A stretch of DNA of 64,000 nucleotides from a virus, in the IMG/VR virus record IMGVR_UViG_3300046714_000236, positions 1-64,000 of that record, one strand, 5' to 3'. A program made the translations under genes and the position numbers. The notes beneath the pieces were generated by a model. The model had not been told where the DNA came from. It did not search any database and saw only the letters and a program-made list of their open reading frames with translations. Positions 3,531 through 61,256 of the stretch are shown in pieces (positions within the stretch are counted from its first letter, which is position 1; every line of letters starts with the position of its first letter).

Positions 3531-3550
3531 GACCGACATCGATGTCGGTC
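3531..3550. repeat. 20-bp palindrome copy 1
   Basis: GACCGACATCGATGTCGGTC exact; overlaps the stop codon at 3549. Confidence 0.97.
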
Positions 3551-3875
3551 AGTACCGTTCGAGCGCCATCGCGTCGCGCGCTTGAACGAACTCCGCCTTC
3601 TCGCCCACCGTGCTGTCGCGAGGCACCGCGCACACGAGCCGCACCGAGTGCACCGCTTCCGTCGCTTGCTGCGCCGCGATGATCCCGCGCTGCAGCGGGT
3701 CGACCGCGCGCACCGCAATGAACGCCGTCCCGAACGCCGTGCGCCAGAGCTGCCGCTCCTGCGGTGTCATGAACTCCAGTCTGCCCATCGCGTTCGCACG
3801 CGCGGCTTCGATCGGCGTGATCCGTTGCGGCGGAAGATTCTTCACCGGGCCCGGTTTCCTTCGTGTCGCCATCAC
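3549..3875 (-). CDS. Hypothetical protein
   Basis: (V)MATRRKPG start coupled to the upstream stop. Confidence 0.65.
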   Translation of the reverse strand: MMATRRKPGPVKNLPPQRITPIEAARANAMGRLEFMTPQERQLWRTAFGTAFIAVRAVDPLQRGIIAAQQATEAVHSVRLVCAVPRDSTVGEKAEFVQARDAMALERY

Positions 3876-4198
3876 TCCACCAATCGATCCGCGTACGCGG
3901 TCGCCTTCTGCAGCGCTTCCCGCACTGCTCTCTCCGCCACTCCCACCGCGCCGCGAACCGCCGCCTGCGCGTCGAGCAGCGCTTCGCGTTTCATCGCCGC
4001 TCGTGATGCCTCGTCCTGACAGAGCAGGAACTCCGCGATCACTTTCTCCGGCGAGCAATGCCCGATCACTTCGCCCGCGGCCACGGTCTTGTAGAGCCGC
4101 CGCGCTTCCACGAGCGCGTTCGCATAACGCTCGTCCTTCGGGCGCTTCGCAAAGTCGCCCTCCAATCGGATCGCCACGTGCGCGTCTAGTTCGGCCAT
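3872..4198 (-). CDS. Hypothetical coiled-coil protein
   Basis: ORF track; GGCATCCT 7 nt before ATG. Confidence 0.7.
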   Translation of the reverse strand: MAELDAHVAIRLEGDFAKRPKDERYANALVEARRLYKTVAAGEVIGHCSPEKVIAEFLLCQDEASRAAMKREALLDAQAAVRGAVGVAERAVREALQKATAYADRLVE

Positions 4199-4214
4199 CC
4201 CGGGCAGGATGCCG

Positions 4215-4664
4215 TCACTTCACCCCGCGCAGCACCGGCTCTCGCATGAGCTTCTTTATCGCCGCCCATTCGATCTGACGCACCCGCTCCCGCGTCAGGT
4301 TGATCACCTCCGCGAGCTCGTCGAGCGTCACCCCGTCCCGATCCGCCACGTCGAGCGCGCACGTTTCTCGGAGCTCCCACAGTTCGAGATCCGGAAAGTT
4401 CATCTTCAACGTCCCCGTCGACGGGCTCACGTCGATGAACAAATGAAACCGACACCCAGCGAATGGACACGGCCGTTCTCCGTTCTCGCACTCGCTCCGC
4501 GTCTTCGGCCGCGCGTACTCGGCGATCTCTTCCACCACCCCGAGTCGCAGCTCCCGCCGCTGCTCACGCGCGAGCGTCCGCACGTTCACCGAGACCGCGC
4601 GCACTTCCCGCTTCCGCTTGTTCCTCAATCGATCACGATCCCTGTACGGCTCGTTGTTCCACAC
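4215..4664 (-). CDS. Stand-alone sigma70 region-4 HTH protein with Cys/His Zn motif (myxobacterial-type)
   Basis: [12 protein letters not shown] and TCALDVAD...[20 protein letters not shown]; GTG start 6 nt after CATGAT. Confidence 0.85.
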
Positions 4665-4690
4665 TTTTTGATCATGCCATGATCGCCCCC

Positions 4691-5005: not shown

Positions 5006-5010
5006 AAACA

Positions 5011-6495: not shown

Positions 6496-6515
6496 GGCAA
6501 CGCCTTCTCAGGCGC

Positions 6516-6893
6516 TTAGCCCTGAGCGCCCTGCACGCCCTGGAAGCCCTGCGCGCCTTGTGCGCCGGCCGCGCCCTGAGCACCAGTGACTCCCTGAGCG
6601 CCTTGCGCTCCCTGCGCGCCGGTGTCGCCTTGTGCGCCGGTGTCGCCCTGCACGCCGTTCGCACCGAGCGCCGCGAGCATCACGATGTCGCACGTCGTGG
6701 GGGGCGCGCCGTTCGCGCGCTTCGCCTGAGCGATCGCCCGAGCGTCCGCGATGCCCGCCGCGCTCGAAGACACGAGCTGCCCGCCGGCCGTCGCGATGTC
6801 CGCGGCTTCGGGTGACGTCGAGTCGAACTCGGTGCCCGCGTAGTAGAGAACCGTTCCGACCTGGGTGGAGTTGATCAGCGTCTGAGTCGACAA
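6516..6893 (-). CDS. Short collagen-like (G-X-Q) protein
   Basis: TTG start after GGAAAGGG; N-domain resembles that of 14272..15426; ends in a GAQ/GDT/GFQ run. Confidence 0.8.
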   Translation of the reverse strand: MSTQTLINSTQVGTVLYYAGTEFDSTSPEAADIATAGGQLVSSSAAGIADARAIAQAKRANGAPPTTCDIVMLAALGANGVQGDTGAQGDTGAQGAQGAQGVTGAQGAAGAQGAQGFQGVQGAQG

Positions 6894-6962
6894 GGGGGTG
6901 CCCTTTCCGGTGAGGTGTTCGAGAACGCTATCACCTCCGCGGGGGGAGGGGATAGCCGGGCC

Positions 6963-6982
6963 GACCGACATCGATGTCGGTC
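6963..6982. repeat. 20-bp palindrome copy 2
   Basis: Exact; lies between divergent putative promoters. Confidence 0.97.
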
Positions 6983-7068: not shown

Positions 7069-7338
7069 ATGAAGACGCTGAACCTTTCCCTCATGTCCCT
7101 CGGTGACGCGCTCGGCTCGCTCCGTTACCTCGGCTCGTGCGCGTGCTGCCGCGACCAGTTCATGAGCACGCACATTCAAGTGTGCTGCGCCGGGGGGCGG
7201 ATCTTCTGCACCCGCGAGAAGTGCCTCACCGCTGCCGCGACCGAGGCGCGGAAAGAAGCGATCGCGATCTTCAACTACACCGAGCAGCGGATCCGCGATG
7301 CCGGTGGAATCACCGACCCGAGTTCGTACGAAGTCTGA
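7069..7338 (+). CDS. Cys-rich early hypothetical protein
   Basis: Start MKTLNL directly after the promoter. Confidence 0.7.
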   Translation: MKTLNLSLMSLGDALGSLRYLGSCACCRDQFMSTHIQVCCAGGRIFCTREKCLTAAATEARKEAIAIFNYTEQRIRDAGGITDPSSYEV

Positions 7339-11196: not shown

Positions 11197-11565
11197 CTAG
11201 TGCATCACTTGAGCGAGCTCGATCGCGGCCTTCGCGATCGCCGTGATGAGCGCCGCGAGTGCGCCGAGCGCCGCAACGATCGTCGGCCACTTCGTAGCCT
11301 TCACCGACTCGCGAAGACTCTTCGGATCACTCCGCGGTCGGTCGCTCTTCGGCGGAGTCATCACATGAATGTGGTTGTGGATCTCGGGAGCGCTCGGCAT
11401 CGGCTCGCGCTTCGGTGCGAGCTCCGCGACGTTGTGCACGCCCGTCGGTTCTTCTTCCCCTTCGAGCTCCGCGGCGTTCTCCTCGCGCTCTGACTTCGCG
11501 AGCAGCTCGTCGACGTCATCGTGAAGCGGGAGCTCGTTCAGATCCCGCCGATCACGCGTGCCCAT
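11197..11565 (-). CDS. Membrane protein with C-terminal TM helix
   Basis: WPTIVAALGALAALITAI; lies in the holin-like cluster. Confidence 0.65.
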   Translation of the reverse strand: MGTRDRRDLNELPLHDDVDELLAKSEREENAAELEGEEEPTGVHNVAELAPKREPMPSAPEIHNHIHVMTPPKSDRPRSDPKSLRESVKATKWPTIVAALGALAALITAIAKAAIELAQVMH

Positions 11566-11845
11566 TGGCTGCCTTGCCTTCGAGCTCGTCGAGCCGCATC
11601 TCGATGCCCGGGATCTTCGAGAGCGCCTGATCGAGTTTGCTCTCGATGCTCTGAAGGATCTTGTTCGTCTCTTTGTTCCCATCGTCGATCGCGGCGTGGA
11701 TCCCTTTCATCCGCGCGTGAGTCATCTTCAGCGACTCGCTCAGCTTGCCGATCGCTTCGCGTTGATGCCCGATCGCCGCGAGTATCCTCGGGCGCTTCTT
11801 CTCGGCACCCGGCGAAACTGTCGTCGGTCCGTCGCGCTCGCTCAT
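11552..11845 (-). CDS. Coiled-coil protein
   Basis: Heptad pattern; ATGA coupling. Confidence 0.65.
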   Translation of the reverse strand: MSERDGPTTVSPGAEKKRPRILAAIGHQREAIGKLSESLKMTHARMKGIHAAIDDGNKETNKILQSIESKLDQALSKIPGIEMRLDELEGKAANGHA

Positions 11846-12222
11846 GCGACGCCCGACATCGATGTCGGTCCTACGGCTGCGACCGGTTTCGGGTTGCCGT
11901 ACGGAAGCGGGCTTTCTTTCAACGCGTGGTGAGTGCCGATCGCCGCGAGCCCCGAGATGATCCCGCCTGCGCTCTGCACGAGCGCCGCGAGCACCGCATC
12001 AATCGGCGCGCCGTTGATGTTCGCCGAGAGCGCTCCGAGCACCGCACCACCCGCGAGCGCGGGCGCCGCCTGTACCGCCGTTGGAAGCTTCGCGAAACTC
12101 GCCGGCCAGAACTTCCGCCACACCCAGATCGCCCCGAGCAGGAGCGCCGAGAGGATCGCGTTGAAGAGCCCGGGGTGCACGCCATCGAGAACCGTTCGGA
12201 GATGGACCAGCGCTGGGAACAT
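11842..12222 (-). CDS. Holin-like membrane protein
   Basis: About 3 hydrophobic helices; start MFPAL 6 nt after TGcTACCAT. Confidence 0.55.
   Translation of the reverse strand: MFPALVHLRTVLDGVHPGLFNAILSALLLGAIWVWRKFWPASFAKLPTAVQAAPALAGGAVLGALSANINGAPIDAVLAALVQSAGGIISGLAAIGTHHALKESPLPYGNPKPVAAVGPTSMSGVA
11851..11870. repeat. 20-bp palindrome copy 3 (1 mismatch, inside CDS)
   Basis: GCCCGACATCGATGTCGGTC. Confidence 0.95.
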
Positions 12223-12923: not shown

Positions 12924-14275
12924 AGATCAGTGTCGTCACACCGAGCCACGATCCGAAGTTTCTTGGCGAGGTGTGGGAGTCGCTCGCCGCGCAGACTCAC
13001 CGCGACTTCGAGTGGATCGTTCTCCTGAACGGCAAGGGCGCCGAGAGTTCGATCACGAACGACGATCCGCGCGTGCGCTTCTACCGCACCGGGCTTCGCT
13101 TCGGCGGTTCGGTCGGCGCTCTGAAAGCGTACGCGTTCTCACTCGCCGCGGGCGACGTCGTGCTCGAACTCGATCACGACGATCTCCTCGCACCCACTGC
13201 GCTCGAACGCTGCGCCGAAGCGTTCGCAGATCCTGCGATCGACTTTGCGTTCTCCGAGTGCGCAGACTTCCCCGATCCGCCCGGCACCGAGCCGACCTAC
13301 TTCTCGCAGAAGTCTCGGCTCGCGTGGATGCAAGACGGCTGGAAGTTCGGCACGTGCGAGGTGCCCGCGAATCTCCGCGCCGCGGTGAAAGCCGAGAAGC
13401 TGCCTCACCCGATCTGCTTCGAGCCGAGCGCGATGAGCGTGTCGATCATCAGCTACGCGCCGAACCACTTCCGCGCGTGGCGCCGTTCGTTCTACGAAAA
13501 GATCGGCGGGCACGACATGGGGTTCGCGGTCTGCGACGATCTCGAAATCCTGCAGCGCACATACCTCGCCGGGCGCATGAAGAAGATCCCCGAGGTGCTC
13601 TACTTCTACCGAGTGCGCGGCGATGGCGCGAACACGTGGCAGCAGAACGTCGGCAAGATCCAGGAGACGAGCCACGCGCTACGCGATCAGAATCTCACCG
13701 CGCTCGTCGGGCGCGAGTGCGAGCTCCGCGGCTTGCCCGCTCTCGACTTGGGAGGGATCCACAATCCCGCAGGCGCACCGTGGATCGCGTTCGACAAGTC
13801 GCTCCCGTGGCCCGAGGGAGTGCCGAAGCGCGAAGACTTCACAGAGAACGAGCAGCGCGATCACTTCGGAGTTCCGCGCCTCGATGGAACGCTTCTCACT
13901 TCGTACAAGTGGCCGTTCCCCGACTCTTCGATCGGCGCCTTCCGCGCAGCTGACTTCCTCGAACACCTGCCGAACAAGCTCGCGACGATGCGCGAGATCT
14001 ATCGCTGCCTCGCTCCCGGTGGATGGCTGCTCTCGTCGACGCCCGACGCTGCAGGCTCGGGCGCGCATCAGGATCCGACTCACTGCTCGTACTGGGTCGA
14101 GAACTCGTTCCGCTACTACACGGAAACGCGACTCGCGAAGTACATCGACAACACCACCGAGCGCTTCATGGTGTCGCGGCTCTTCACGGCGAAGGGAGAG
14201 ATCCCCTACGTGATCGCCGATCTCATGAGCCTGAAGGATGACGACGGGAAGCTACCGGGCAGACGCTCGATCTAG
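12920..14275 (+). CDS. GT2 glycosyltransferase fused to class I SAM-methyltransferase-like domain
   Basis: ISVVTP, ELDHDD (DxD); C-terminal LDLGG, PFPDSS, DFLEHL, IYRCLAPGG, DPTH. Confidence 0.88.
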   Translation: MKISVVTPSHDPKFLGEVWESLAAQTHRDFEWIVLLNGKGAESSITNDDPRVRFYRTGLRFGGSVGALKAYAFSLAAGDVVLELDHDDLLAPTALERCAEAFADPAIDFAFSECADFPDPPGTEPTYFSQKSRLAWMQDGWKFGTCEVPANLRAAVKAEKLPHPICFEPSAMSVSIISYAPNHFRAWRRSFYEKIGGHDMGFAVCDDLEILQRTYLAGRMKKIPEVLYFYRVRGDGANTWQQNVGKIQETSHALRDQNLTALVGRECELRGLPALDLGGIHNPAGAPWIAFDKSLPWPEGVPKREDFTENEQRDHFGVPRLDGTLLTSYKWPFPDSSIGAFRAADFLEHLPNKLATMREIYRCLAPGGWLLSSTPDAAGSGAHQDPTHCSYWVENSFRYYTETRLAKYIDNTTERFMVSRLFTAKGEIPYVIADLMSLKDDDGKLPGRRSI

Positions 14276-15426
14276 ATCAGCTCCCACGAGTCCCACTGCA
14301 CGAAGGGCTGATTCAATTGCCCATAGCCGAGCCCGATCTGATCGGGCGCGCTCCCGAAGAACCCGACGCCGATGTTCCAGTTCTCTTTCCAGACCACGCC
14401 GTCGCCGCTGTAGAACCGGAACGTCGCGCCGTCGAACGTCACGCGGAACCACGAGTAGTCGCCGACCTGATCCGTATCGAGCCCGCCCGCGGGCGTCGTG
14501 TCGTCGGTCCATGACACGCCGACGAGGAGCGCGGGCTTCGTCCAGCCCCACACGATCGCCTGCTTCGTTGCCGCGTTCCGGATCACGATCCCGCTCGTGC
14601 CCGTGCTGCCGCCGCCCGCGCCGACCAACGTCGCCACGTGCGCGCGGACGTCGAACGTCCCCGGCATCGTCGTCACCAAACCCGAGAGCACATCCGCGCC
14701 GCTCGAACACGTCGCCGTGATGCGCCCCGCGTCGTCTGCGAACGTCTGCGTCGCCGCTGATCCGAACGCGGTCCACGTGCCGACCGCGGGCACCTGCTTG
14801 CCGACGCGCCCGAGGATCATCGGCCGCCACGCGACGCCGTCGTCCACCCACTCCGGGCCGCCATCGCTCGACACGTAGCGCGCGCCCTGATGCCCCGCCG
14901 AAGGGCGCGCTGAGTACAGACCGAAGCCGCCGATCGCCGGGCTGCCCTGCAGCCCCTGCGCGCCGGTGAGACCCTGAGCGCCCGCCGTGCCTTGTGCTCC
15001 TGCCGTTCCCTGCGCGCCGGTGAGACCCTGAGCACCCGCCGTGCCTTGTGCGCCTGCCGTTCCCTGCGCTCCTGTGACGCCCTGAGCGCCTTGCGCTCCC
15101 GCGGCTCCCTGCGCCCCGGCTGCGCCTTGCGAGCCCTGTGCGCCCGTCCCTGGCGCGCCCTGAGCACCCTGCGGGCCCTGGCTCCCCGCGCCGCTCGCCG
15201 CGAACGCCGCCGCCATGATGGCGTCCACGCGATCGCGGTTGCTGCTCTGCACGAGGATCGCGCACTGCTCGGCCGCTTCTCGGAGCCCCGGGATCGACGC
15301 ATCCGCGAGCGTGCCGCCGATGCCCTCGATCATCGTGACGTCGACGTACTCGTCATCAATCAGGCGCCCCGCGTACAGAATGTCTGTACCGAGGATCACC
15401 GTGTTGATGAGGTAGAAGAGCGCCAT
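14272..15426 (-). CDS. Collagen-like fibre protein
   Basis: N-domain, (G-X-Q)n run and beta-rich lectin-like C-domain. Confidence 0.85.
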   Translation of the reverse strand: MALFYLINTVILGTDILYAGRLIDDEYVDVTMIEGIGGTLADASIPGLREAAEQCAILVQSSNRDRVDAIMAAAFAASGAGSQGPQGAQGAPGTGAQGSQGAAGAQGAAGAQGAQGVTGAQGTAGAQGTAGAQGLTGAQGTAGAQGTAGAQGLTGAQGLQGSPAIGGFGLYSARPSAGHQGARYVSSDGGPEWVDDGVAWRPMILGRVGKQVPAVGTWTAFGSAATQTFADDAGRITATCSSGADVLSGLVTTMPGTFDVRAHVATLVGAGGGSTGTSGIVIRNAATKQAIVWGWTKPALLVGVSWTDDTTPAGGLDTDQVGDYSWFRVTFDGATFRFYSGDGVVWKENWNIGVGFFGSAPDQIGLGYGQLNQPFVQWDSWELI

Positions 15427-15901: not shown

Positions 15902-15933
15902 GCCGAGAACGGTATCACAACCCCCGACCGAGC

Positions 15934-17304
15934 TCAGAGCTGCACGCCGAGCACGCTGAACGCAGCGTCATCCGTGAGAGGAAGCGCGAGCGTCGAGACG
16001 AGCGCCGGGGTGCTCATCGAATAAGCGTACAGGGTCTTATCCCCCGTGATGTCGTCGGTCCCGCAGAAGATCGCGAGCCCTGCTTCTGTCATGAGCGCGG
16101 GCTCCGTCCGCTGCGCCGTCGGCGCGAACGTCTCGGTGCTCACGAAGTCGGGGATCCCCGTCGCCCTCGGAACTCGCATCGCGTGGAACGATCCGTCCGT
16201 GAATCCGTAGAACCAGAACGAATCCGAGTCGACGTCGTACACACCGCCGAAGAGCAGCGGGTTGTCCCCGAGTGATGGCCCGATGAACGTGGGATCGAGC
16301 GTGTCAGGAGCCCACGACACGATCCCGCCAGACGCGCCGCTGTAGAACTTCGACGCACTCGCGACCCACATGAGAGACGACGAGTCGCCGAACACTTGCT
16401 TGTCCGTCGTCGCGAGCGTGACCGACGAACCGCCGACCGTCGGATCGATCTGAAAGACAACCGTGCTCGGACTCGCGTCCATCCCGATGTGAACGGTGAT
16501 CGCGTACAGGAACCCATCACCCGGGAAGCAGAACCCGAACGGGTAGAAGCCGAGGTACGTGGGGAAGTCGAAACCCGACAGATCGACCGGCGTGTCGAAC
16601 GTGAGCACCGCGTCCACCGATGCAACGCGCGGGTTTGCGCTGCCCGTGAGGAACCACGTCTGCGCCTGCGTCGGATCGCCGATGAGCTTTCCGAAGTTGA
16701 CGAAGCCGGTCATCGGATCCGGCACCGCTCCCTGCAACACCGTCGCAAGCGTGTCCGGATCGAGCTTCGCGATCTGCGGGATCGCCGACTCGTCGCATCC
16801 GTACACGTACAGCTTCCCATCGAACGCGACCGCGCCGCCGTCCACTCCCGCGAGCACACCCGCCGCGGTCTTGCTCGCGACCAGTGCGAACACGCCCGCA
16901 CTGCTCACCGTGTAGCGAAGAACGACCGGCTCGATCGAGGGAACTTCGACGAAGCTCGCGAAGACGAAGAGCGCTTCCGTCGTCACCGGCTCGGGCACGG
17001 GGTTCGGGATGATCTCGGGTTCCTGCAGAGGGATCACTTTGAACGGCGGGATCGGTTCACCGAGCTTCGGCGGGATCGCCGTGTAGAGCTCCAGCGCTTC
17101 GAGCTCCGTGATGAACACCGCGGCGGAGAGCACGTCGGAGAGCCCGACGCGGAGCACGTGCGCGATGTTCTTCGCGAGCTTGATCGGAAGCGGCTGCGCG
17201 GTCTGATCGATCCGAACGAGGAGCTCGGGCGAGACGACGCACGCCGCGGCAAGGTTGCCGAGCGTGTAGCCGTTCTCACTCGCGAGATCGAGCAGCCGCC
17301 CCAC
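15934..17304 (-). CDS. XRE-HTH-like N-terminus fused to beta-propeller-like domain
   Basis: First ~58 aa follow a Cro/C1 helix pattern; Pro-rich linker; repeated beta blades. Confidence 0.7.
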   Translation of the reverse strand: MGRLLDLASENGYTLGNLAAACVVSPELLVRIDQTAQPLPIKLAKNIAHVLRVGLSDVLSAAVFITELEALELYTAIPPKLGEPIPPFKVIPLQEPEIIPNPVPEPVTTEALFVFASFVEVPSIEPVVLRYTVSSAGVFALVASKTAAGVLAGVDGGAVAFDGKLYVYGCDESAIPQIAKLDPDTLATVLQGAVPDPMTGFVNFGKLIGDPTQAQTWFLTGSANPRVASVDAVLTFDTPVDLSGFDFPTYLGFYPFGFCFPGDGFLYAITVHIGMDASPSTVVFQIDPTVGGSSVTLATTDKQVFGDSSSLMWVASASKFYSGASGGIVSWAPDTLDPTFIGPSLGDNPLLFGGVYDVDSDSFWFYGFTDGSFHAMRVPRATGIPDFVSTETFAPTAQRTEPALMTEAGLAIFCGTDDITGDKTLYAYSMSTPALVSTLALPLTDDAAFSVLGVQL

Positions 17305-17307
17305 GGG

Positions 17308-18945
17308 TCAGAGCTTCCAACCGGTGACGAGCAGGTTCGGCAGATCGCGCGTTGCGCTTCCGGTGAACGGGATCGGAAGCCATTCGACGATGAAATACAG
17401 ATTGTCGTTCGCGTACCCGTTCGAGCTACCGAGGATCACACGCGGGATCCATGCCTCGAAGAGCACAGTGCGAAACCCCGTCGCCGGATCGAACGCCGAA
17501 AAATTCGATGAACCGATGTACCGCCCGATCAGCTGTGTGAATCCCGCGTCCGCGTAGACTGCGATCTCGTTCGTGTAGGTGAATCCGACTGCGACCGTCC
17601 CCGAGATGCGAGACGCGAGCGCAACCTTCACCGCCTTCGCCATCTTCGGGAAGTTTGTACCCGCCACGAGCGCGTACTGATCAGCGGAGCCCACCGCAGT
17701 AGGCGCGGGACCCTGCATGAACGCACCATCCGACGGCACCGTTTCGCCCGCGCTGAGAGTGATCCCCACAGGCACCGGGCCCGCTCCGAGATCTGCACAG
17801 ATGCCAGCCGCGAGGAGTACCGCCGTCTGCGATCCCGTGATCCCCGTCGCCGTTGGAGGGGGCACCGTGCCGAACCCGAGATCCGTCGCCGCACCGAATT
17901 GATAGACCGCGAGGATCCCGCGACCGGCGTTCGGGATGCGCGGCACCGTGGGCGAGTCGACGTAGCGCACCCAGCGCGGAAGATTGCCCGGGAAGATCGC
18001 CCACAGGTACCAGGGATCGCCTGCCGTGAACGACGCGCCTGCCGCTTGATTGACCGGGTCCTGCAGATCGATCCCGATGGCGCCGCCCGCGAGGTACATC
18101 GCCGCGCGCGAGTTGACGACGCCCGTGAGGAGCGTCTTCGTCGTGTCCGTGAAATCGTTCGAGTTGAGGTACGAGCCCGGATCGATCGGCTGAAGGATCG
18201 ATTGCAGATCCGTCCCCGCCGCGATCCGATCTTTCACGAGCGGTCGCACATCCCAGAACGTCATGTCGTCGACGCTCGCCGCTGCGCTCGGGACGCTCGC
18301 CACGCAGAGCGGGAGCCAGCCCTGCACGTTCGCCGGAAGTCCCGCGCCGGGCGTCCCCTCGCGCACGCGGTAGGTGAGCTCGCCCTGGATCACCTTCGTC
18401 ACCGCGATCGGGGAGAAGAGCCCCGTCGACGGATTGAAAATGTCTCGGTTGTCCGTTTCGAGCACCGTGCTGTTTCGCTGCACCTCGATCACGTCGATGC
18501 GAGTCTGCCCGCCCGAGCCCGCCGACATCACGAGCGTTCCGAGGTTCGTGACGCCCGGATCGTCGACGATCTTGTAACGGCTATCGTCCGGATTCGCGGG
18601 GTTCGGATCGGAGCTCCCCGTTTCGCCGTCCGGGTCATCGAGCCCCACAACACCGGGCGAGACGAGCAGGTTCAACGAGCCCGCTTGGGGGAGGACGACG
18701 AGCCCGTCGATCACGTCCCCGCGTAGCGGCGTGCCGACGGCTGCCGTGTTCTGCAGCACCGTGTCGACGTAGCTCCCGAACTCCACCACGCCGCCGCCGC
18801 CGGTGAACACGGCGTTGCGGTTGTTCATCAGGAGCCGGTACGACTCGGCGCGATCGGCTGCCGCGAACCGTTCCGCGCGGTTCTGATCTTGGGAGATCAC
18901 CCGTTCCCGGGTGTTGTAAATCATCTGCTTCGCGCCGCTGCCCAT
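17308..18945 (-). CDS. Baseplate/tail-fibre attachment protein
   Basis: Follows the wedge genes; TRID.I and LPLC.ASVP...D.RP motifs typical of fibre N-termini. Confidence 0.7.
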   Translation of the reverse strand: MGSGAKQMIYNTRERVISQDQNRAERFAAADRAESYRLLMNNRNAVFTGGGGVVEFGSYVDTVLQNTAAVGTPLRGDVIDGLVVLPQAGSLNLLVSPGVVGLDDPDGETGSSDPNPANPDDSRYKIVDDPGVTNLGTLVMSAGSGGQTRIDVIEVQRNSTVLETDNRDIFNPSTGLFSPIAVTKVIQGELTYRVREGTPGAGLPANVQGWLPLCVASVPSAAASVDDMTFWDVRPLVKDRIAAGTDLQSILQPIDPGSYLNSNDFTDTTKTLLTGVVNSRAAMYLAGGAIGIDLQDPVNQAAGASFTAGDPWYLWAIFPGNLPRWVRYVDSPTVPRIPNAGRGILAVYQFGAATDLGFGTVPPPTATGITGSQTAVLLAAGICADLGAGPVPVGITLSAGETVPSDGAFMQGPAPTAVGSADQYALVAGTNFPKMAKAVKVALASRISGTVAVGFTYTNEIAVYADAGFTQLIGRYIGSSNFSAFDPATGFRTVLFEAWIPRVILGSSNGYANDNLYFIVEWLPIPFTGSATRDLPNLLVTGWKL

Positions 18946-18968: not shown

Positions 18969-18988
18969 GACCGACATCGATGTCGGTC
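18969..18988. repeat. 20-bp palindrome copy 4
   Basis: Exact; 6 nt downstream of TGaTAGACT on the minus strand. Confidence 0.97.
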
Positions 18989-29677: not shown

Positions 29678-29697
29678 GACCGACATCGATGTCGGTC
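29678..29697. repeat. 20-bp palindrome copy 5
   Basis: Exact (extends to 22 bp); 2 nt after the stop at 29700. Confidence 0.97.
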
Positions 29698-34162: not shown

Positions 34163-34182
34163 GACCGACATCGATGTCGGTC
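34163..34182. repeat. 20-bp palindrome copy 6
   Basis: Exact (extends to 24 bp); abuts GGCATCCT. Confidence 0.97.
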
Positions 34183-36094: not shown

Positions 36095-36114
36095 GCCCGA
36101 CATCGATGTCGGTC
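36095..36114. repeat. 20-bp palindrome copy 7 (1 mismatch)
   Basis: GCCCGACATCGATGTCGGTC, between a stop codon and GGCATCCT. Confidence 0.95.
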
Positions 36115-36115: not shown

Positions 36116-36754
36116 TCAGTCCCCGAGCATCTCGCGCATCCAATTGTTCAACTTGGCCTGCATGAACCCGAGCATCTCGAACCACGGCACGCGAGGGGGC
36201 GAGCGCGTGTCGGCGTTCGCGTTGACGATGATCTTCATCCCGACCGCACGGCGCGCCGAGAAGATCACGATCCTGTCGTCCTCGCGAACGGCTTCCTCGA
36301 ACCGGGCTCGAAGATCTTCGATGTCCTTCGCTTCCCACGCCGCCGTCCCGTCGACGACGGAGAGCGAGGGAGCTTCGGGCATCCGCGGCAACTCGTCGGT
36401 GTACGCGCTCCGTTCCAGATCGCGTCGCACCTCGGGCGAGTTCACGATCCGCCTGAAGTTCGCGAGCCCTTCCGCGCGCCGTTCGTCGGTGAGCCTCGGC
36501 CCTTCGTTGATCGTCACCGCCGCGATGCGTTCGACCACGCCCGGCCGCGGAGCTCCCTGCGCTCCGCGCTCGTACGCTTCGGCAGTCTTCGCCGTGAGCG
36601 TGTCGATCAGTGCGAGCAGTTCAGCAAACTCGATCGCGCGATTGCAGACCGCGCACCGCGCGCCTTCCTTCGTGTAGTGCCCCGTCAGCGTCCGCACTTC
36701 GATCCGCCCCGGACACGGGAGCAAGCTTCGCCGGTCGAGCGCCCCGCAGATCAT
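36116..36754 (-). CDS. Hypothetical protein with N-terminal Zn ribbon
   Basis: ATGA coupling; C..C...CAVC. Confidence 0.65.
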   Translation of the reverse strand: MICGALDRRSLLPCPGRIEVRTLTGHYTKEGARCAVCNRAIEFAELLALIDTLTAKTAEAYERGAQGAPRPGVVERIAAVTINEGPRLTDERRAEGLANFRRIVNSPEVRRDLERSAYTDELPRMPEAPSLSVVDGTAAWEAKDIEDLRARFEEAVREDDRIVIFSARRAVGMKIIVNANADTRSPPRVPWFEMLGFMQAKLNNWMREMLGD

Positions 36755-39502: not shown

Positions 39503-39868
39503 TCAGCGGTCCGAATTGGCGAGAGCGTGCGCCATCGCGAGCGAGATGCGATCGACGCTCTGCTCACGGTTCGCCCCGAACGTCTTCGCGAGCGCGTCGA
39601 CAACGAGCCCCGAGATCTGCGCACGCACTTCGGGCTTCGCGAGCTCTTCCCGGATCACCTCGATCGCGACTCTGAGCAGGGCGTTGTCGGTCGCTTCCTG
39701 CAGCTTGCTCGGCTTCTTCGCCGCCCACCTATCGGCGCCCTCCTGAGGCTTCATGAGGTTCGCGAGCGCCTCGGTGATCATCTGCTTCCGCTCGTCGGGG
39801 GAGATCTTTTGGAAGAGCGCCTCCACCACGAGATCGCGCAGCTGTTCGTCTGACAGGTTGAGGTTCAT
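39503..39868 (-). CDS. Helical hypothetical protein
   Basis: Upstream 21 nt identical to those of the 39485 gene. Confidence 0.75.
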   Translation of the reverse strand: MNLNLSDEQLRDLVVEALFQKISPDERKQMITEALANLMKPQEGADRWAAKKPSKLQEATDNALLRVAIEVIREELAKPEVRAQISGLVVDALAKTFGANREQSVDRISLAMAHALANSDR

Positions 39869-39893: not shown

Positions 39894-39913
39894 GACCGAC
39901 ATCGATGTCGGTC
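39894..39913. repeat. 20-bp palindrome copy 8
   Basis: Exact; intergenic. Confidence 0.97.
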
Positions 39914-41253: not shown

Positions 41254-41273
41254 GACCGACATCGATGTCGGTT
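41254..41273. repeat. 20-bp palindrome copy 9 (1 mismatch)
   Basis: GACCGACATCGATGTCGGTT. Confidence 0.95.
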
Positions 41274-41274: not shown

Positions 41275-41388
41275 TCACTCTTCCGGGTCGCTCGGCTCGA
41301 CGAAGAGGAACGCGAGCGCGGCGCACACCGTGACGAAGAACGCGACGACCGCCATCGCCGCGAGCCCTTTGAAAACGAACGCGAGCAT
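41275..41388 (-). CDS. 37-aa single-TM peptide
   Basis: MLAFVFKGLAAMAVVAFFVTVCAALAFLFVEPSDPEE; GGCATCGT 7 nt before ATG. Confidence 0.55.
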   Translation of the reverse strand: MLAFVFKGLAAMAVVAFFVTVCAALAFLFVEPSDPEE

Positions 41389-41406
41389 GTTCCACACGAT
41401 GCCGCC

Positions 41407-50179: not shown

Positions 50180-51583
50180 TCAGGAGCCGAGCGCGAACTC
50201 CAACATGAGCGACCGCTTCACGATCTGCGGGCCGCCCGAGCTGATGTCGGTCGGGATCGGGAAGCCACCCGTGTAGCTCCACGTGCACGACACGATGTCT
50301 TGCGTCCGGTTGACCGGGCTCCGAAGGATCAGCGAGATGCGATCCGTCTTCACTTCGATCCCTTGGTTCGTGATGTTGAAGCCGCCGATCTTGCCGGTGA
50401 CTCCCGCTTCACTCACGTAGCGCTTCTCGTCGAGCCAGCGCTCGTAGATCGCACCGCGCCCCGTGATGACGACGCGACCGACGCGAACGCCGGTGTAGTT
50501 CACCACCTCGGCGTTGATGCCCTTCGCGAACTTCGCGCTGCCCGCCGTCGTGATGAGCGCGCCCGAGTTCGAGTCGTCCGGCGTCTCGTTGTTGAGGAAG
50601 AACGCGATCCCCGCGCCCGTCCCGATGAACGCCGACTGATACTGAATCGAGTCGGGACGCCCTTGGTTCAGGCGCTGCATCACCTGATCGGTGAAGATCT
50701 GGCCGTTGCCCTCGGGGCTGATGTGCGCGTGAAAAAACCCGTCTTCGTGTGGGAACACGTTGTTTTGACGGAGCTTGTTCGTCGCGTTGATGAAGTCCTG
50801 GTACTGCAGGATGTCGTTCGCCTGCAGTGCATCGACTGACGTGCCGCCACCGGCGCGCATGATGATCGGGCGCGTGCTCGCGAGGACCGAGCTACGGATC
50901 GCCACGCCTGCGCCGACAGTGCTGTCGAGCGCGAGCGTACCGGGACCGAGCGGGACCGCGGGATCGTACGGCGTCGCGCCGATCACGTTCAGGCTGATCG
51001 GCGTGGTGCCGCTCATGAGCGTGATGGGGAGCGGTGCCGCCGTCGAGACGGGCGTCGGGCGCACGGTCGTACCGCGCGTGATGACGCTCGTGAACCCGTT
51101 GAGGCTCGCGACCTGAAGGAACGTGTCACCCGTGAGCGCGGCGACGATGAGCGCCGTCGAGCCCTGAAGGTACGCGGTGCAGAGCGCGTTCCTCGGGATG
51201 CGGTTCAGCGACTGCCCCGCCTGAAGGCCGAGCTGCTGAATGCTCCGGAGGAAGATGTCGCTGTTCGCGACCGCGTTCGTCGGCATGTCGACGTCGATCG
51301 TGCCGATGTAGCGATCGAGGCGAGCAGTCCATTGCTCCCACGTGAGCGCTTGCGGCTCGGGGTCGACACCGGGCACCGCGGGATCCGTGATCGGATCGAG
51401 CAGGCCGGCGCGAGTCATGAGGATTTCCTGGCCGGTGTTGCCCTGCCACTCTTCCTCTTGCGCTTCGCCCCTGAAGAGCATCGCGGGGAAGAGCCCATCG
51501 TGGAACGCGCGCTCCAGTAGGCCAGTCTGAACGAGGTTCAGGATCGTCGGAGGTACTCCGAGAACGATGCCGTTGGTCTCCAT
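50180..51583 (-). CDS. Major capsid protein
   Basis: 467 aa after the scaffold; QLGLQAGQSLN spine helix and L..NNV P-domain pattern. Confidence 0.85.
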   Translation of the reverse strand: METNGIVLGVPPTILNLVQTGLLERAFHDGLFPAMLFRGEAQEEEWQGNTGQEILMTRAGLLDPITDPAVPGVDPEPQALTWEQWTARLDRYIGTIDVDMPTNAVANSDIFLRSIQQLGLQAGQSLNRIPRNALCTAYLQGSTALIVAALTGDTFLQVASLNGFTSVITRGTTVRPTPVSTAAPLPITLMSGTTPISLNVIGATPYDPAVPLGPGTLALDSTVGAGVAIRSSVLASTRPIIMRAGGGTSVDALQANDILQYQDFINATNKLRQNNVFPHEDGFFHAHISPEGNGQIFTDQVMQRLNQGRPDSIQYQSAFIGTGAGIAFFLNNETPDDSNSGALITTAGSAKFAKGINAEVVNYTGVRVGRVVITGRGAIYERWLDEKRYVSEAGVTGKIGGFNITNQGIEVKTDRISLILRSPVNRTQDIVSCTWSYTGGFPIPTDISSGGPQIVKRSLMLEFALGS

Positions 51584-51774: not shown

Positions 51775-51794
51775 GACCGACATCGATGTCGGTC
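51775..51794. repeat. 20-bp palindrome copy 10
   Basis: Exact; between scaffold and capsid genes. Confidence 0.97.
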
Positions 51795-51801: not shown

Positions 51802-52701
51802 CTACCAGCTTTTTTTCATGCCCTGGCGGTTCATGTACTCCTTCAGCTGCTTGTCGTTCATCGAGTTCGGGAGCCCGGGACGCGGCGTCAAACCCGCGAG
51901 CGGATCGGGCGCCGCGGGAGCGGCCGCAACCTTCGGCGGGACCGGCTGCTTGCCGTTCGTCGCTGGCGTTCGCACGGGAGGCTTCGGCGCCGCCGCGGGA
52001 GCTGCAGCCGCGGGGGGAGCGGTGAGCTCAGCGGGAGGCGCGCCCGTCGGTGCCTCGACCAGTTCCTGATTCTCCTTCGCGTACTTCGCGAGCCACGCGT
52101 TGATCGCAGCGCGTCCGAACTTCCCTTGCTCCGTCTTCGTGAGCTTCGCGTAGTGCTGCGCCATCTGATCGTTCACGAACGGCACGAACTTCTCTTTGAA
52201 CTTGTGCGATGCGACGAGCGCGCGCACCTCGGCGTTCTGCTTCTGCGCAAGCGTCTGCGTCTTCTGATCTTCGAGCTGTGCGGTGAGCTCTGCGATCTTC
52301 GTCGTCGCCTTCTGCAGATCGGCCTTCAGCTGATCGATCTCCGTCATCTCGGAGCGCTTGCGCGCTTCTGATTCCTCACGAAGGCGCGTGAGCTCTTCCG
52401 CGTCCGCTTGCCGCTTGACCCTGAGCTTCTCGACTTCCGCCGGATCGTCCGTGCCGAACTCGGCCTTCAGGAGTCGCTTGCGCTCTGCCTCGCGTTCCTT
52501 CCGCTTCACATCCGAGATCGCTTCTTCCGGCACGGGGCTACCGCCGCGACCGAGCACGGGCGCAACGGGTTCGACGGGAGCGGGCTCGATGGGTGGAGGC
52601 GCGGGAGGCGCGACCGCTACGGGCGCCGCAGGGGGCACGACGATCGCGGGAGGCGGCATCGGGGGAGCTGGGTTGACGGGTGCGACGGCAGGTTCTGTCA
52701 T
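51802..52701 (-). CDS. Capsid scaffold protein
   Basis: Pro-rich ends, central coiled coil, directly before the capsid gene. Confidence 0.8.
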   Translation of the reverse strand: MTEPAVAPVNPAPPMPPPAIVVPPAAPVAVAPPAPPPIEPAPVEPVAPVLGRGGSPVPEEAISDVKRKEREAERKRLLKAEFGTDDPAEVEKLRVKRQADAEELTRLREESEARKRSEMTEIDQLKADLQKATTKIAELTAQLEDQKTQTLAQKQNAEVRALVASHKFKEKFVPFVNDQMAQHYAKLTKTEQGKFGRAAINAWLAKYAKENQELVEAPTGAPPAELTAPPAAAAPAAAPKPPVRTPATNGKQPVPPKVAAAPAAPDPLAGLTPRPGLPNSMNDKQLKEYMNRQGMKKSW

Positions 52702-54532: not shown

Positions 54533-54552
54533 GACCGACATCGATGTCGGTC
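54533..54552. repeat. 20-bp palindrome copy 11
   Basis: Exact; abuts the stop at 54553. Confidence 0.97.
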
Positions 54553-54900
54553 CTACTTCGGCCAGGCCGGGTGCAGCTTCGGCTCCTGCAGCTCGTACAG
54601 GGTCGACCAGACGTCGGAGTACAGATGCGCGCGCGGGCGGTCCTTCTCGGCGATCCGGCTCTTGAAGTTGTCGTAGTCGATCGCTCCTGTGATGCGAAGC
54701 ATCGCAGCGGCCACGACCGACTTCGAGCAAACCACCCGAAACCGATAGTCGGCATCGAGCGTTTCGCGGATCCGAATGCGCGAGCGCGCGTGTTCGAGAA
54801 ACTGCTTCAAGTCTTCGCGGCGCCGTGCGCGCACGCAGAGATCCACCGAGCCGCGCTTCTGCACGATGCTCACGAAACCGCCGTCGAAAAGGATCCACAT
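54553..54900 (-). CDS. Conserved-looking phage hypothetical protein
   Basis: MWI...GFVSIV...VRAR...DYRFR...IDYDNFK...VW pattern. Confidence 0.8.
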   Translation of the reverse strand: MWILFDGGFVSIVQKRGSVDLCVRARRREDLKQFLEHARSRIRIRETLDADYRFRVVCSKSVVAAAMLRITGAIDYDNFKSRIAEKDRPRAHLYSDVWSTLYELQEPKLHPAWPK

Positions 54901-58143: not shown

Positions 58144-60351
58144 TCAGATGCCGGGAAGCTTCGGCTGCACGGGGAGTGCGGGAACGGGAGGCGCGACCGG
58201 CTTCGGCGCGAGTGCGCCCCCGAGCCCTTCGCCTTCCGCTTGGCCCTTCGCTTCCTTCTTCGCCGCGTACTCCGCAACGGTGAGATCACCGTCCGGATCG
58301 GGTCGCTTGTCCTTCGTGAGAAGCGGCCCGAGTTTGATGCTCCGCCGCGCCTCGTTCACCGTGACGATCTTCGCGACGTCGGTCGGCGTGACGAGCCCAT
58401 CCTCTGCGTCTGCAAGCCCGACCGGGAGGATCCCATCCGGACCGACATCGATGTCGGTCGGCGCGGGAGCGTTCGGATCGACGGGCCCCGCGGGAGGCGT
58501 CGCACCTGGCGGAAGCTCGTTCGGGTTCGGCACCGCGCCGCCGAACGGCGGCGTGAGACCCATCTCCAGATCGCGAGCACGAGCGGCTTCGTCCTGCACG
58601 CGTTGCCACTCCTTCTCGGGATCGCGGTTCATCATGTTCGCGATGCTCTCGACCATGCTCTGCTGACTCGCGACCGGCTTCGCTCCGATCGCCGTCGACG
58701 CACCGGCCATCGCTTGCTGGCGTTCCGCGATCGTGGGCGGGAAGTATTCGCCCCATTCGAGCGAAAGCGAACCACTGCCAGGCTCGCGCTCGATCGTGCG
58801 CGTCTCGTCGGTCGCGTTGCCGTCCTTGTCGAGAACCGGTTCCTTCCGCGGTTCGAGATCGAGGAAGTATTCGACATCGTTCGCGGGCTCTTCGGGCTCG
58901 GTCGGGATCGCCGCCGTGTCGACGTCGTACGTCGGGAGCGGGTCCTCGTTCAGCGCGTAGTCTTCTTCGATCGTGACCGGCGTGAGCGGCGCGCCCTGCG
59001 CCTTGCCGAGCAGACGGCGCGCGCTCCGGATCTGATCGTTCAGAAGCCGGAGGATCCCCATGTCCCCGTAGTGTTCGCGGTACACGTCCGCGACGTTGAT
59101 CATCGGCGCGTAGATCATCTTGATCGCGACGCTGCTCGTCCCTGCCGCCGCGATCTCGTCGGGGTCGGGGATCACGCACTGCACGTCTTCGAGGATGGAG
59201 TTCTTCTGCGCCTTGATCAGTTCGAGCCCCGCCGTGATCGAGCTGCCCGAGAGTTCGAGATACTTCGCATCGCGCGGCGAATTGCTCTCGGTAACACCGG
59301 TCGCGAGCGCGTGATCGCTTCCCTTCATGAGCACCATTGCGCCCATTTCGGCGGGGGTCACACCCGGGAGCACGAGCGTCGGATCGAGGTTCTTCGCACC
59401 ACCACGCGCGAGCACCGAGTTCAGAACGTCGAGCGTGTCGAGCGCCTCGAACTGCCCTTCGTAGTCCGGCTCTCCGTCGACGCTCGCCTGCTTCGCTTCG
59501 CTGTCGTTCGTGATCCAAACGAAGTGACACCGAGCATCGTTGTGCGAGAAGCACATCGGTTCATCGCGTTCCCACGGCACGCGCTCGCCATCGTTCCGAA
59601 CCGGGGTCGGTTTGAAACAGACATCCTCGTTCAGCGTCCAGTCACGCCGCACCCAGTGCTGGATCTCGACGAGCTCGCCCTTGTCGTTCTTCCCCGTCAT
59701 CGGGAGCTGATAGAGCTCCATCACGTGCGACGGGATCTTCTCGTCGAAGTTCGCCCACTGCAGCGTGTAGATCTGCGAACCGTCGTGCACGCGGTTCACC
59801 GGTTTCCCTTCGTAGAAGCACCACGAAATCCCGACCGTGCCGCACGAGCCGCCGACGTTCCGCGCCTGCACCATGCGAACGCGGAGCTGCCCGATCTTCG
59901 CGAGCTCTTCGGCGTAGTCCTGCGTCGCGGGATCGTCGGATCGAAGTTGCGGGAATCGGTTCTGCCCGAAGAGCAGCGACGTGAAGCGCTTCGTGATCGT
60001 GCGCGCGAGTCGCTTCGGTGCGTGCGGTCTCCGTTGTTCGAGCGGCACGTAGAAGCTCGGCTGCTGTCCGATCAGCGGCTGGCTCCCCCACAGTTCCTCG
60101 TGCTGCCGAAAGCGGCCCGAGAAATCGAACATCTTGTCGTCGTGCTGCGTGCACGTGTACCACTTCGACGCGAACCGGAGTTTCTTCGAGCGGTTCGAGT
60201 AGTAGTACGACTCCGGGTTGACGTAGTCATCCGACGCGGGAACTGCGCTCGGTTGCGCGTGCACGTCCTCGGGTCCTGTCGTCGTCGCGCCGGGCCCGAA
60301 CGCAGAGTACGTCTGCACGGGCGCCGCGTTGCCTTGACCGAAGATCCCCAT
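58144..60351 (-). CDS. Portal protein
   Basis: Between terminase and MuF; SSVAIK..YAPM, W..YFP and TVNEARR motifs. Confidence 0.85.
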   Translation of the reverse strand: MGIFGQGNAAPVQTYSAFGPGATTTGPEDVHAQPSAVPASDDYVNPESYYYSNRSKKLRFASKWYTCTQHDDKMFDFSGRFRQHEELWGSQPLIGQQPSFYVPLEQRRPHAPKRLARTITKRFTSLLFGQNRFPQLRSDDPATQDYAEELAKIGQLRVRMVQARNVGGSCGTVGISWCFYEGKPVNRVHDGSQIYTLQWANFDEKIPSHVMELYQLPMTGKNDKGELVEIQHWVRRDWTLNEDVCFKPTPVRNDGERVPWERDEPMCFSHNDARCHFVWITNDSEAKQASVDGEPDYEGQFEALDTLDVLNSVLARGGAKNLDPTLVLPGVTPAEMGAMVLMKGSDHALATGVTESNSPRDAKYLELSGSSITAGLELIKAQKNSILEDVQCVIPDPDEIAAAGTSSVAIKMIYAPMINVADVYREHYGDMGILRLLNDQIRSARRLLGKAQGAPLTPVTIEEDYALNEDPLPTYDVDTAAIPTEPEEPANDVEYFLDLEPRKEPVLDKDGNATDETRTIEREPGSGSLSLEWGEYFPPTIAERQQAMAGASTAIGAKPVASQQSMVESIANMMNRDPEKEWQRVQDEAARARDLEMGLTPPFGGAVPNPNELPPGATPPAGPVDPNAPAPTDIDVGPDGILPVGLADAEDGLVTPTDVAKIVTVNEARRSIKLGPLLTKDKRPDPDGDLTVAEYAAKKEAKGQAEGEGLGGALAPKPVAPPVPALPVQPKLPGI
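58440..58459. repeat. 20-bp palindrome copy 12 (inside portal CDS)
   Basis: Exact; encodes (P)TDIDVG in the Pro-rich tail. Confidence 0.97.
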
Positions 60352-60632
60352 CAGCGAGCCCCTCGCCGTTCGGCGATGCTCCCGACCAACGGGAACTCCT
60401 CAGGCTCGGGATCGACGAGCCGCATGCGGGGCTCGATCATGGCGCGCGCTTCAGGTGTCACGACCGGGCCGTCGTAGCCGTCGATCTCCTGCGCGCGATC
60501 TTCCCCAACGAGCTCACCGAGCGGCGTTCGGATCGCGTCCGACGCCGCATCGGGATCGAGCTTCATCGCGGCCTTCGCGAGCAGGCCCGCAGTAAAGGAA
60601 CGCGCGATCATCCGCACGGCGTCGAGCACCAT
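60351..60632 (-). CDS. Hypothetical protein
   Basis: TACGCT 7 nt before ATG. Confidence 0.7.
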   Translation of the reverse strand: MVLDAVRMIARSFTAGLLAKAAMKLDPDAASDAIRTPLGELVGEDRAQEIDGYDGPVVTPEARAMIEPRMRLVDPEPEEFPLVGSIAERRGAR

Positions 60633-60645
60633 GCGGAAGAGCGTA

Positions 60646-61221
60646 CTACGTCCCCGGGTCTTTGAGCCACGCGGGATCGGCGACGTTCTTCGCTTGGCTC
60701 ACCGCAAGCCATCTCACGAGCAGCCCGCGCCCGTAACCGTACAGACTGAGCGGGATGATCCCCGGGTTCGCGATGCCGAGCCGCATCCGGCCGCCGATGA
60801 TGAACCCACGGTCCGCGCTCGGGTGCGGGTGATCTTCGCCGATGTGGATGAGCGATTGATCGCCGGCCGCGAGCGTTGCCGTGAGGTGCCCGCCCTGCGT
60901 GTCACTGAGAAGCCGGAGCTGCCCCGAGCTATCCGCATGCGTCATTCCCACGCACGCGACCCAAAAGATCCACGGGAACCCCTGCTCGACGTCGAGCACT
61001 GCAGGGCAGATCCGGGTACTCGCCGACGAGTTCAACGCCCATCCCTCGCCCCACGATCGCCGGAAGTAGCCACGCGCGCCGCGCCGTCCATGAAGCTGTG
61101 ACTCGTACGGGAGCAAGATCACTCCCTGCGATTCGAGCGCCGCAACGCGTTCGGCCCCTTCGACTATCTGCCCTTCTCGGAGCGCGCCTCGGTGATCGAA
61201 CACGACGATTGCAGATTCCAC
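60646..61221 (-). CDS. Hypothetical protein
   Basis: GGGAAAGG RBS; beta-rich. Confidence 0.65.
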   Translation of the reverse strand: MESAIVVFDHRGALREGQIVEGAERVAALESQGVILLPYESQLHGRRGARGYFRRSWGEGWALNSSASTRICPAVLDVEQGFPWIFWVACVGMTHADSSGQLRLLSDTQGGHLTATLAAGDQSLIHIGEDHPHPSADRGFIIGGRMRLGIANPGIIPLSLYGYGRGLLVRWLAVSQAKNVADPAWLKDPGT

Positions 61222-61236
61222 GCTTCAGCCTTTCCC

Positions 61237-61256
61237 GACCGACATCGATGTCGGTC
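61237..61256. repeat. 20-bp palindrome copy 13
   Basis: Exact; abuts the stop at 61257. Confidence 0.97.

Follow-up and report, generated by a model that had tools for sequence, protein, structure and literature searches.

Palindromic words repeated at gene boundaries in a clade of phage genomes, each lineage with its own word

The viral genome IMGVR_UViG_3300046714_000236 (referred to here as G000) is 94,229 bp long and was rated complete by CheckV, with direct terminal repeats. Its first 64 kb, positions 1 to 64,000, formed the window of this analysis, and positions given below count from the first nucleotide of the genome. A 20-bp palindrome recurs throughout the window and the rest of the genome, and related phages carry arrays of the same kind built from other words. 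The array is real, selected and clade-wide, and it consists of a gene-boundary punctuation element with lineage-specific words. Its copies are polar with respect to genes, associated with promoter-like motifs and evenly spaced, and the word is replaced from lineage to lineage. Tentatively, and with less than even confidence, the word is read here as the place where a symmetric DNA-binding protein would dock to act on transcription-unit boundaries; that it is recognized as duplex DNA, by a dimer, is what we infer from the variation described below.

Array and placement in G000

The 16-bp core of the palindrome, CCGACATCGATGTCGG, had 13 exact matches in the window, compared with 0.10 on average and at most 2 in dinucleotide-preserving shuffles. 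Core starts were at 3533, 6965, 11853, 18971, 29680, 34165, 36097, 39896, 41256, 51777, 54535, 58442 and 61239, each 2 nt inside one of the 13 starts listed for the 20-mer in the original prediction. As that prediction had also held, the full 20-mer was present in 10 of the 13 copies, and those at 11851, 36095 and 41254 each had one outer base changed. Allowing up to two mismatches to the core revealed no additional copies in the window. The whole genome contained 19 copies, six of them beyond the window (68578, 71111, 76546, 81177, 86351 and 93210). A scan of all of G000 with up to 4 mismatches in 20 positions returned nothing besides these 19, without a halo of decayed copies. Variation between copies was limited to the outer 2 bp, flanks were unrelated and edges were sharp, in agreement with the invariant core and unrelated flanks proposed earlier. 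Gaps between window copies measured 1,360-10,709 nt (predicted, 1.4-10.7 kb).

Genes were called with a codon model trained on the long open reading frames (ORFs) of G000 itself, and start positions are therefore approximate. These independent calls gave the same split in the window as had been predicted, 11 copies being intergenic and two within ORFs. Genome-wide, the 19 sites were 14-15 intergenic copies, two in the last codons of a gene overlapping the next start, and two inside long ORFs. The suggestion that all functional modules are alike in carrying copies was upheld: copies were dispersed over the genome, mostly at gene junctions and sometimes inside ORFs. An artefact is very unlikely, because copies are embedded in-frame in ORFs and because at least nine independently assembled relatives have comparable arrays made of other words.

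Along the direction of transcription, the usual order was a stop codon, 0-22 nt, the palindrome, a −10-like motif or Shine-Dalgarno (SD) sequence, and then a start codon. Two classes of −10-like motif were found 6-7 nt before starts, which suggests, from sequence, that many transcripts are leaderless; all promoters mentioned here are motif predictions. The first class, GCATCCT-N6/7-ATG, had 17 matches in G000, of which three adjoined a palindrome. The second, TGATAsNNT, has the shape of an extended −10 element and had eight matches; in five, 23-39 nt separate it from the end of an upstream palindrome, and in one a palindrome starts 6 nt downstream. Five of the seven gaps with TGATAsNNT also contained a palindrome (Fisher p = 0.006); for gaps with GCATCCT the count was 3 of 12, which was not significant. 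The TGATAsNNT motifs precede capsid, baseplate-region and fibre genes. Minus-strand examples of the motifs include GCATCCT at 4212, 33816, 39499, 40417 and 55131, and TGATAsNNT at 15917 and 47416.

Five copies were followed by the second class of motif. The copy at 29678..29697 begins 2 nt past the stop of 29700-29999(-) and has TGATACGCT 25 nt downstream, followed after 7 nt by the GTG start of 28851-29636(-). The copy at 41254..41273 is 1 nt past the stop of 41275-41397(-), with TGATAGGCT 26 nt downstream and an ATG 7 nt further on. Next to the major capsid gene (50180-51583, minus strand), the copy at 51775..51794 is located 7 nt past the stop of 51802-52701(-), with TGATACGTT 39 nt downstream and then the long leader of the capsid gene. 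The copy at 54533..54552 abuts the TAG stop of 54553-54900(-); TGATACCTT is found 23 nt downstream and is separated by 7 nt from an ATG. Finally, the copy at 6963..6982 lies in the divergent gap between the collagen-like gene 6516-6971(-) and 7069-7338(+), with TGATAGCGT 29 nt downstream in the minus sense. The reverse arrangement was seen for the copy at 18969..18988, which follows the stop of 19007-20803(-) by 18 nt and precedes the start of 17308-18945(-) by 23 nt. Here TGATAGACT ends 6 nt upstream of the palindrome, and a transcript would therefore start at the palindrome itself.

Three copies were adjacent to the first class. That at 34163..34182 is 4 nt upstream of the leaderless-type GCATCCT-N6-ATG of 33867-34145(-). 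That at 36095..36114 stands between the stop of 36116-36754(-) and a downstream GCATCCT-N6-ATG, 1 nt from each. The copy at 39894..39913 starts 19 nt past a stop and is followed after 11 nt by the GCATCCT-N7-ATG of 39503-39868(-).

The remaining four window copies were placed as follows. The copy at 3531..3550 overlaps by 2 nt the TGA stop of 3549-3845(-), and the 14 nt between it and the start of 3079-3516(-) contain only an SD sequence. The copy at 61237..61256 abuts the TAG stop of 61257-61616(-). At 11851..11870, where the second of the outer bases is changed, the copy is in-frame within the last nine codons of 11842-12222(-), 5 nt before the start of 11552-11845(-). The copy at 58440..58459 is inside the portal gene 58144-60351(-), at residue 632 of 735 aa, and encodes TDIDVG in a Pro-rich, indel-rich linker. 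This copy and one in an SbcC-like gene are the two situated well inside ORFs of G000; both occupy linker segments that are gaps in most orthologues.

None of the approximately four convergent junctions of G000 carries a copy. Between 28 and 48 kb (20 kb), canonical sigma-70 promoters were not above shuffles, and hairpin-plus-U terminators numbered 9 versus 11.5 in shuffles.

Words and placement in related genomes

A terminase-profile search yielded 80 related viral loci, many with their own repeated perfect palindrome. Whole records were then fetched for relatives, the palindrome-bearing ones having 30-44% terminase identity to G000. Their words were a 22-mer around GGATCGATCC in G001 (17-19 copies, 85.6 kb), GGAAACCCGGGTTTCC in G004 (16 copies, 76.9 kb), CCCAAACCCGGGTTTGGG in G005 (26 copies, 99.9 kb), GAACCCGGGTTC in G006 (20 copies, 88.8 kb), TGGAACTCGAGTTCCA in G007 (24 copies, 95.1 kb), a 22-mer around GGCCCGGGCC in G008 (17 copies, 91.6 kb), GGAA[A/T]CCCGGG[A/T]TTCC in G010 (13 copies, 86.2 kb) and TCGGAAGATCGATCTTCCGA in G013 (14 copies, 92.0 kb). 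Density in palindrome-rich relatives was about one copy per 4-7 kb. The relative closest to G000, G009 (IMGVR_UViG_3300032893_000018, 93.9 kb), has five copies of a 9-N1-9 repeat; G011 (90.8 kb) and G012 (93.8 kb) have no word and zero copies.

All nine whole-genome words are of even length, have a CG centre and are self-complementary through the central 4-6 bp (ATCGAT, CCCGGG, CTCGAG). Palindromic repeats in partial loci likewise have self-complementary centres (ACCGGT, CCGCGG, AGCGCT, AACGTT, CACGTG, GATC). Some words form graded series: in one, GGAA..TTCC arms enclose CCCGGG or CTCGAG, and in the other, YCGG arms enclose ATCGAT. Such series are the expected outcome of drift in the specificity of a reader. 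Divergence within the clade is considerable, the closest genome pairs aligning over just 10-30 kb at ~68% identity. The junction at 18969 was the only one alignable on both sides between G000 and G009: G000 has a promoter motif and the palindrome, versus a 22-nt SD gap in G009, and the two sequences were too diverged for an insertion unit to be defined from this empty-site comparison. G007 has its own palindrome at the same junction.

Outside the clade, the G000 word was found only as unrelated singletons in viral, genome and metagenome collections, among the matches listed. Contigs with a single match were, among those listed, unrelated to G000 by blastn or tblastn. A host repeat of the repetitive extragenic palindromic (REP) type, or another abundant repeat, which had been named as a possible refutation, was not supported: among the matches listed no genome or metagenome contig contained more than one copy.

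Placement and spacing statistics cover seven palindrome-bearing genomes. Noncoding DNA makes up 6-10% of each genome yet houses 50-92% of the sites, the remainder being in ORFs. In co-directional gaps, 64 sites were nearer the upstream stop versus 15 nearer the next start (p = 2e-8), and 49 of 81 palindromes started 10 nt or less past the stop. The promoter-like motif takes other forms in relatives, such as GCGCCATAGT for G001 and GCGGCATAA for G005. In each of these two genomes the motif most often seen before starts was present downstream of palindromes, in 5 of 19 flanks for G001 and 5 of 26 for G005, and in no upstream flank. Where palindrome and promoter-like motif occur together, the motif follows the palindrome and almost never precedes it.

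Spacing was more even than chance, with a coefficient of variation of 0.37-0.52 versus ~0.93 for random positions, at ~4-5 kb in five of the seven genomes. The evenness persisted when copies were compared with randomly drawn gene junctions (p ≤ 0.002 in four genomes and 0.035 in a fifth). The most shared positions were upstream of the capsid gene (four of seven genomes) and of the sheath gene (three of seven). Overall, 24-26 orthologous junctions were co-occupied versus 12-16 expected (1.6-2x).

Two further features of the relatives were recorded. G009 contains a CRISPR-like array (L149:2217-3020) with 11 copies of a ~37-bp repeat and unique ~36-bp spacers. The G010 contig starts in the middle of a palindrome (L261:1-20) and has another copy ~200 bp from its other end (L265 end region); this start is probably an assembly break at the repeat or, less probably, a genome terminus at a palindrome.

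Duplex site, hairpin or mobile repeat

The proposed protein site would work as a cis-acting punctuation mark at transcription-unit boundaries, typically located 0-20 nt past the stop of one gene and ahead of the −10-like motif or SD sequence of the next. A symmetric, homodimeric, sequence-specific protein would read the duplex. Once bound, it would insulate or gate the adjacent promoter, either as a roadblock to read-through or by using the word as an operator for the TGATAsNNT promoters of structural genes. Word and reader would drift together between lineages, and such joint drift would account for the own word of each related phage.

What favours this over a structure in RNA is the pattern of variation. 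All 16-22 word positions are invariant, with no compensatory or G-U variants, and outside the invariant core pairing was no better than in shuffled arms in six of seven genomes. Where the two halves do vary, they do so independently. At position 9 of the G007 word, the combinations c-g, t-a, t-g and c-a were observed 8, 4, 5 and 7 times versus 8.1, 4.1, 4.9 and 6.9 expected. At position 4 of the G010 word, 4 of 13 copies are A/T hybrids, which would place mismatches in a stem. The self-complementary centre present in every lineage is, furthermore, not needed by an RNA tetraloop. These three results (central symmetry, absence of pairing covariation outside the core, independent half-sites) lend indirect support to the site of a dimeric protein acting genome-wide, as the original prediction had put it, which is the best single reading; the search for the protein itself found no reader.

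That search and several other results weigh against a symmetric protein site. Of the ~130 proteins of G000, about 100 were scanned with Pfam or PHROGs, which singled out just three of interest: a sigma-70 region-4-like protein, a sigma region-2-like protein and a 71-aa protein with a sub-threshold helix-turn-helix (HTH); no repressor-type family was detected among those scanned. Profiles of 66 families revealed none that was in all palindrome-bearing genomes yet absent from G011. Residues of the recognition helix in the 71-aa family do not track palindrome type, Q/K at the relevant position also being found in genomes with other words. Invariant central base pairs are unusual for HTH dimers. 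G011 and G012 lack the element altogether. Lastly, flank asymmetries with a preferred orientation occur in G006 (9:0) and G013 (8:3), and G010 has copy-specific extra complementary arms (p = 0.011); the asymmetries and the arms are easier to reconcile with hairpins or copying than with a protein site that is symmetric. In G006 (e.g. 969, 10042, 12472; L239-L243), half of the copies are asymmetric, position 7 of the sense strand setting an A against a C, always in one orientation relative to transcription; the template strand would have a G-T wobble there.

Individual candidates fared as follows. Of the two proteins put forward earlier, that encoded by 15934-17304 had no Pfam or PHROG match and was not retained. 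The other, the 149-aa protein of 4215-4664(-), was found by family search to be sigma-70 region-4-like and may be a reader, yet it was detected in only four of the seven palindrome-rich relatives profiled and also in one palindrome-poor relative. The family of 64920-65579 initially appeared promising, since BLAST clustering placed it in all palindrome-bearing genomes and not in G011 or G012; it was rejected when a profile search found a G011 copy (E = 8e-23). It looks like a small-terminase-type HTH protein beside the terminase. The 71-aa protein (87606-87821) belongs to a family located beside the primase in all genomes but G012, palindrome-less G011 included. Its predicted structure was a generic three-helix bundle (pLDDT 74), and a Foldseek search of the PDB with this model gave no match better than E = 0.77. 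A correspondence between its recognition helix, which is variable in the family, and the palindrome centre was considered: K/Q follows a conserved T-[LIV] in three ATCGAT-centred genomes. The same was predicted for a fourth, G014, which has G, and the correspondence was rejected. In G011 the conserved small HTH protein (L269:6112-6507) is duplicated in tandem, a single chain containing two HTH motifs.

The principal alternative is that the word acts as an RNA hairpin, namely as the terminator, insulator or stabilizer half of a PeSL-like terminator-promoter cassette, independent of any protein and followed by a next gene with its own promoter. The stem-loop would form in the mRNA right behind a stop codon and would end or protect the upstream transcript. 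According to PMC4122927, PeSLs are small composite terminator/promoter repeats of virulent myoviruses. We regard this alternative as possible, although on balance unlikely. The polar placement just past stop codons and the position of promoter-like motifs downstream of the palindrome are what it predicts, and the extended copy-specific arms of G010 agree with it. In addition, hairpin-plus-U terminators are not in excess in the 20 kb scanned, and something else must then punctuate transcription. An intrinsic (Rho-independent) terminator in the strict sense was rejected: the G000 word has a stem (−11.5 kcal/mol), but a U-tract in sense orientation followed 0 of the 19 copies. Folding energies ranged from −7.5 to −16 kcal/mol across words, several being only about −8 kcal/mol. 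A hairpin leaves unexplained the absolute identity of copies, the self-complementary loops in every lineage and the absence of compensatory or G-U variants, and the independent half-site variation with its stem-breaking hybrids speaks against it. Location raises further difficulties. The convergent junctions of G000 lack copies, though the need for a terminator is greatest there, and some sites are inside ORFs. At four G000 sites a start codon follows after 10-23 nt, nothing but an SD sequence intervening, and for this reason these sites cannot be efficient terminators; one G000 site is in a divergent promoter region, without an upstream gene to terminate.

Alternatively, the word could be a selfish or recombination-propagated mini-palindrome, or a joint for module exchange, the position of which would reflect tolerance of insertion more than function. 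We consider this quite unlikely. The patchy distribution among relatives (0, 5 or 13-26 copies, each genome with its own word) is in line with such an origin, and exact identity with sharp edges implies copying from a common source. Shared positions exceed expectation only 1.6-2x, the portal and SbcC-like copies occupy indel-rich linkers that are gaps in orthologues, and the asymmetric G006 variant has a fixed orientation. Recombination between such repeats has been used to explain indels in Cluster O mycobacteriophages (PMC4351075). Against it, six-frame searches of G000 gave no match at E ≤ 1 to the Y1/RAYT transposase family (PF01797), though the host may encode such an enzyme, and no tyrosine integrase (Phage_integrase) or serine recombinase (Resolvase) domains. 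Spacing is more even than the gene-junction null (p ≤ 0.002 in four genomes), and selection is indicated by the link to one promoter class and, in several genomes, to the heads of the capsid and sheath operons.

A role in genome mechanics, whether as a partition or compaction code, as recombination hot spots, or as sites of loading or nicking used in replication or in clamp-dependent late transcription, is highly improbable: even spacing and phage-encoded beta clamp, RecA-like, SbcCD-like and RuvC-like proteins are compatible with it, but no link between these enzymes and the sites was seen, the gene-boundary bias and the polarity relative to stop and promoter are not expected from it, and palindromes 16-22 bp long whose centre is GC-rich form cruciforms poorly. 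Its parS/ParB-type variant, one of the roles first proposed, is disfavoured, ParB_N (PF02195) having no match at E ≤ 1 in six frames of G000 while controls were positive; the co-occurring ParB gene suggested as a check was accordingly not found. The proposed lysogeny network of the stoperator type is likewise disfavoured, given the lack of tyrosine or serine integrases, a full lytic replication module and symmetric sites.

Gene content, known systems and significance

G000 has 65% G+C and nearly all of its genes are on the minus strand. Family searches identified the large terminase (62344-64029), the portal, a sheath protein, collagen-like fibres and an amidase. The replication and recombination set comprises DnaB, a DnaG-type primase, the beta clamp (66610-67698), RecA-like and SbcC/SbcD-like proteins, a RuvC-like resolvase and ThyX. 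From this content G000 looks like a virulent myovirus. Proteins with collagen repeats, presumably fibres, are encoded at 6516-6971, 14272-15426 and 26162-28854, and the family is multi-copy in most relatives.

The sigma region-2-like protein found by family search is encoded at 85656-86300(-) (L255:1656-2300), separately from the region-4-like gene. Such region-4-only and region-2-only genes could represent a split sigma factor or a late transcription system in the style of T4 gp55/gp33. Together with the phage beta clamp, the two proteins might serve −10-only promoters. Two N6/N4 DNA methyltransferases are encoded at 64026-64904(-) (L254:26-904) and 71951-73150(+) (L254:7951-9150), and the family was found in most relatives. 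The palindrome centres ATCGAT, CCCGGG and CTCGAG are classic targets of such methyltransferases, yet these 6-mers are also frequent outside the palindromes.

Several known systems resemble the array in part. The phiC31 repressor binds conserved inverted repeats (CIR) that are present in many copies over the phage genome; phiC31 is temperate and the protein is its immunity repressor. Cluster A stoperators are also many copies of one short site in short intergenic gaps, read by one phage protein. They belong to temperate phages, are bound by the immunity repressor, and are asymmetric and oriented with transcription, in contrast to the symmetric sites of G000, which has no integrase domain and looks virulent. 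The sites of ParB-parS, Noc-NBS and KorB-OB are perfect palindromes of 13-16 bp with a CG centre, read over their full length by a dimer and dispersed in several to many copies. G000 differs in having no ParB-family domain, a word unlike the parS consensus, and sites tied to gene boundaries. REP elements are genome-specific palindromes just past stop codons; copies in one genome are nearly identical, and those of separate genomes differ. They are bacterial, imperfect, usually longer and accompanied by a Y1 transposase; unlike REP/RAYT systems, G000 has no Y1 transposase match, and no cellular genome with multiple copies of its word was present among the matches listed.

To our knowledge, a few cultured phages also have a single short palindrome arrayed over the whole genome, and a role is known for such arrays only in temperate-phage immunity. 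Among described systems, the nearest to the G000 array is a 17-bp dyad repeat, TGTTCGG-N3-CCGAACA, found in Cluster O mycobacteriophages in dozens of copies per genome, with a function left unexplained (Cresawn et al. 2015, PMC4351075). A dimeric binding protein was inferred by its authors, who also noted recombination between copies (PMC4351075). Both systems have many copies with invariant arms and unrelated flanks, in all modules and mostly at short junctions, with some inside ORFs. The Cluster O repeat is absent from the host genome, and the G000 word occurs elsewhere only as unrelated singletons among the matches listed. The Cluster O repeat has a variable 3-bp spacer and is the same word in all five sequenced members, whereas the words described here are perfect through the centre, 16-26 bp long and different per lineage. 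It is also not obviously tied to promoters, whereas words of the G000 clade precede promoter-like motifs, hug stop codons and are missing from some relatives. The PeSL motifs of T4-type phages, as portrayed in PMC2839356 and PMC4122927, combine a repeated intergenic stem-loop with a promoter at junctions in virulent myoviruses, a layout that the G000 clade, with its predicted promoters, may share. PeSLs are consensus-like and cluster in hyperplastic regions among variable genes; the G000 copies are exact and are also found in core structural and replication modules, and only some copies in the clade adjoin a promoter motif.

A broader proposal is that this ~90-kb virulent clade splits its genome into units of ~4-7 kb with about 13-26 identical words, and that a dedicated phage protein, evolving fast, reads them and is replaced jointly with the word. 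The result would be a private code that insulates transcription units and may stop co-infecting relatives from cross-reading. In this full form the proposal is speculative, and we hold it to be rather unlikely.

The phenomenon is not unique, and the clade is a particularly tractable case for comparison. It is an unusually clean system of more than 10 complete or near-complete genomes that have a common gene order and a different exact word each. Similar density, the same polarity of stop, word and promoter, and relatives that are natural 'knock-outs' make the question testable. If the reader were found, the clade would provide orthogonal protein-DNA pairs with a specificity of 16-26 bp, and it would reveal a new way in which lytic phages organize transcription without classical terminators.

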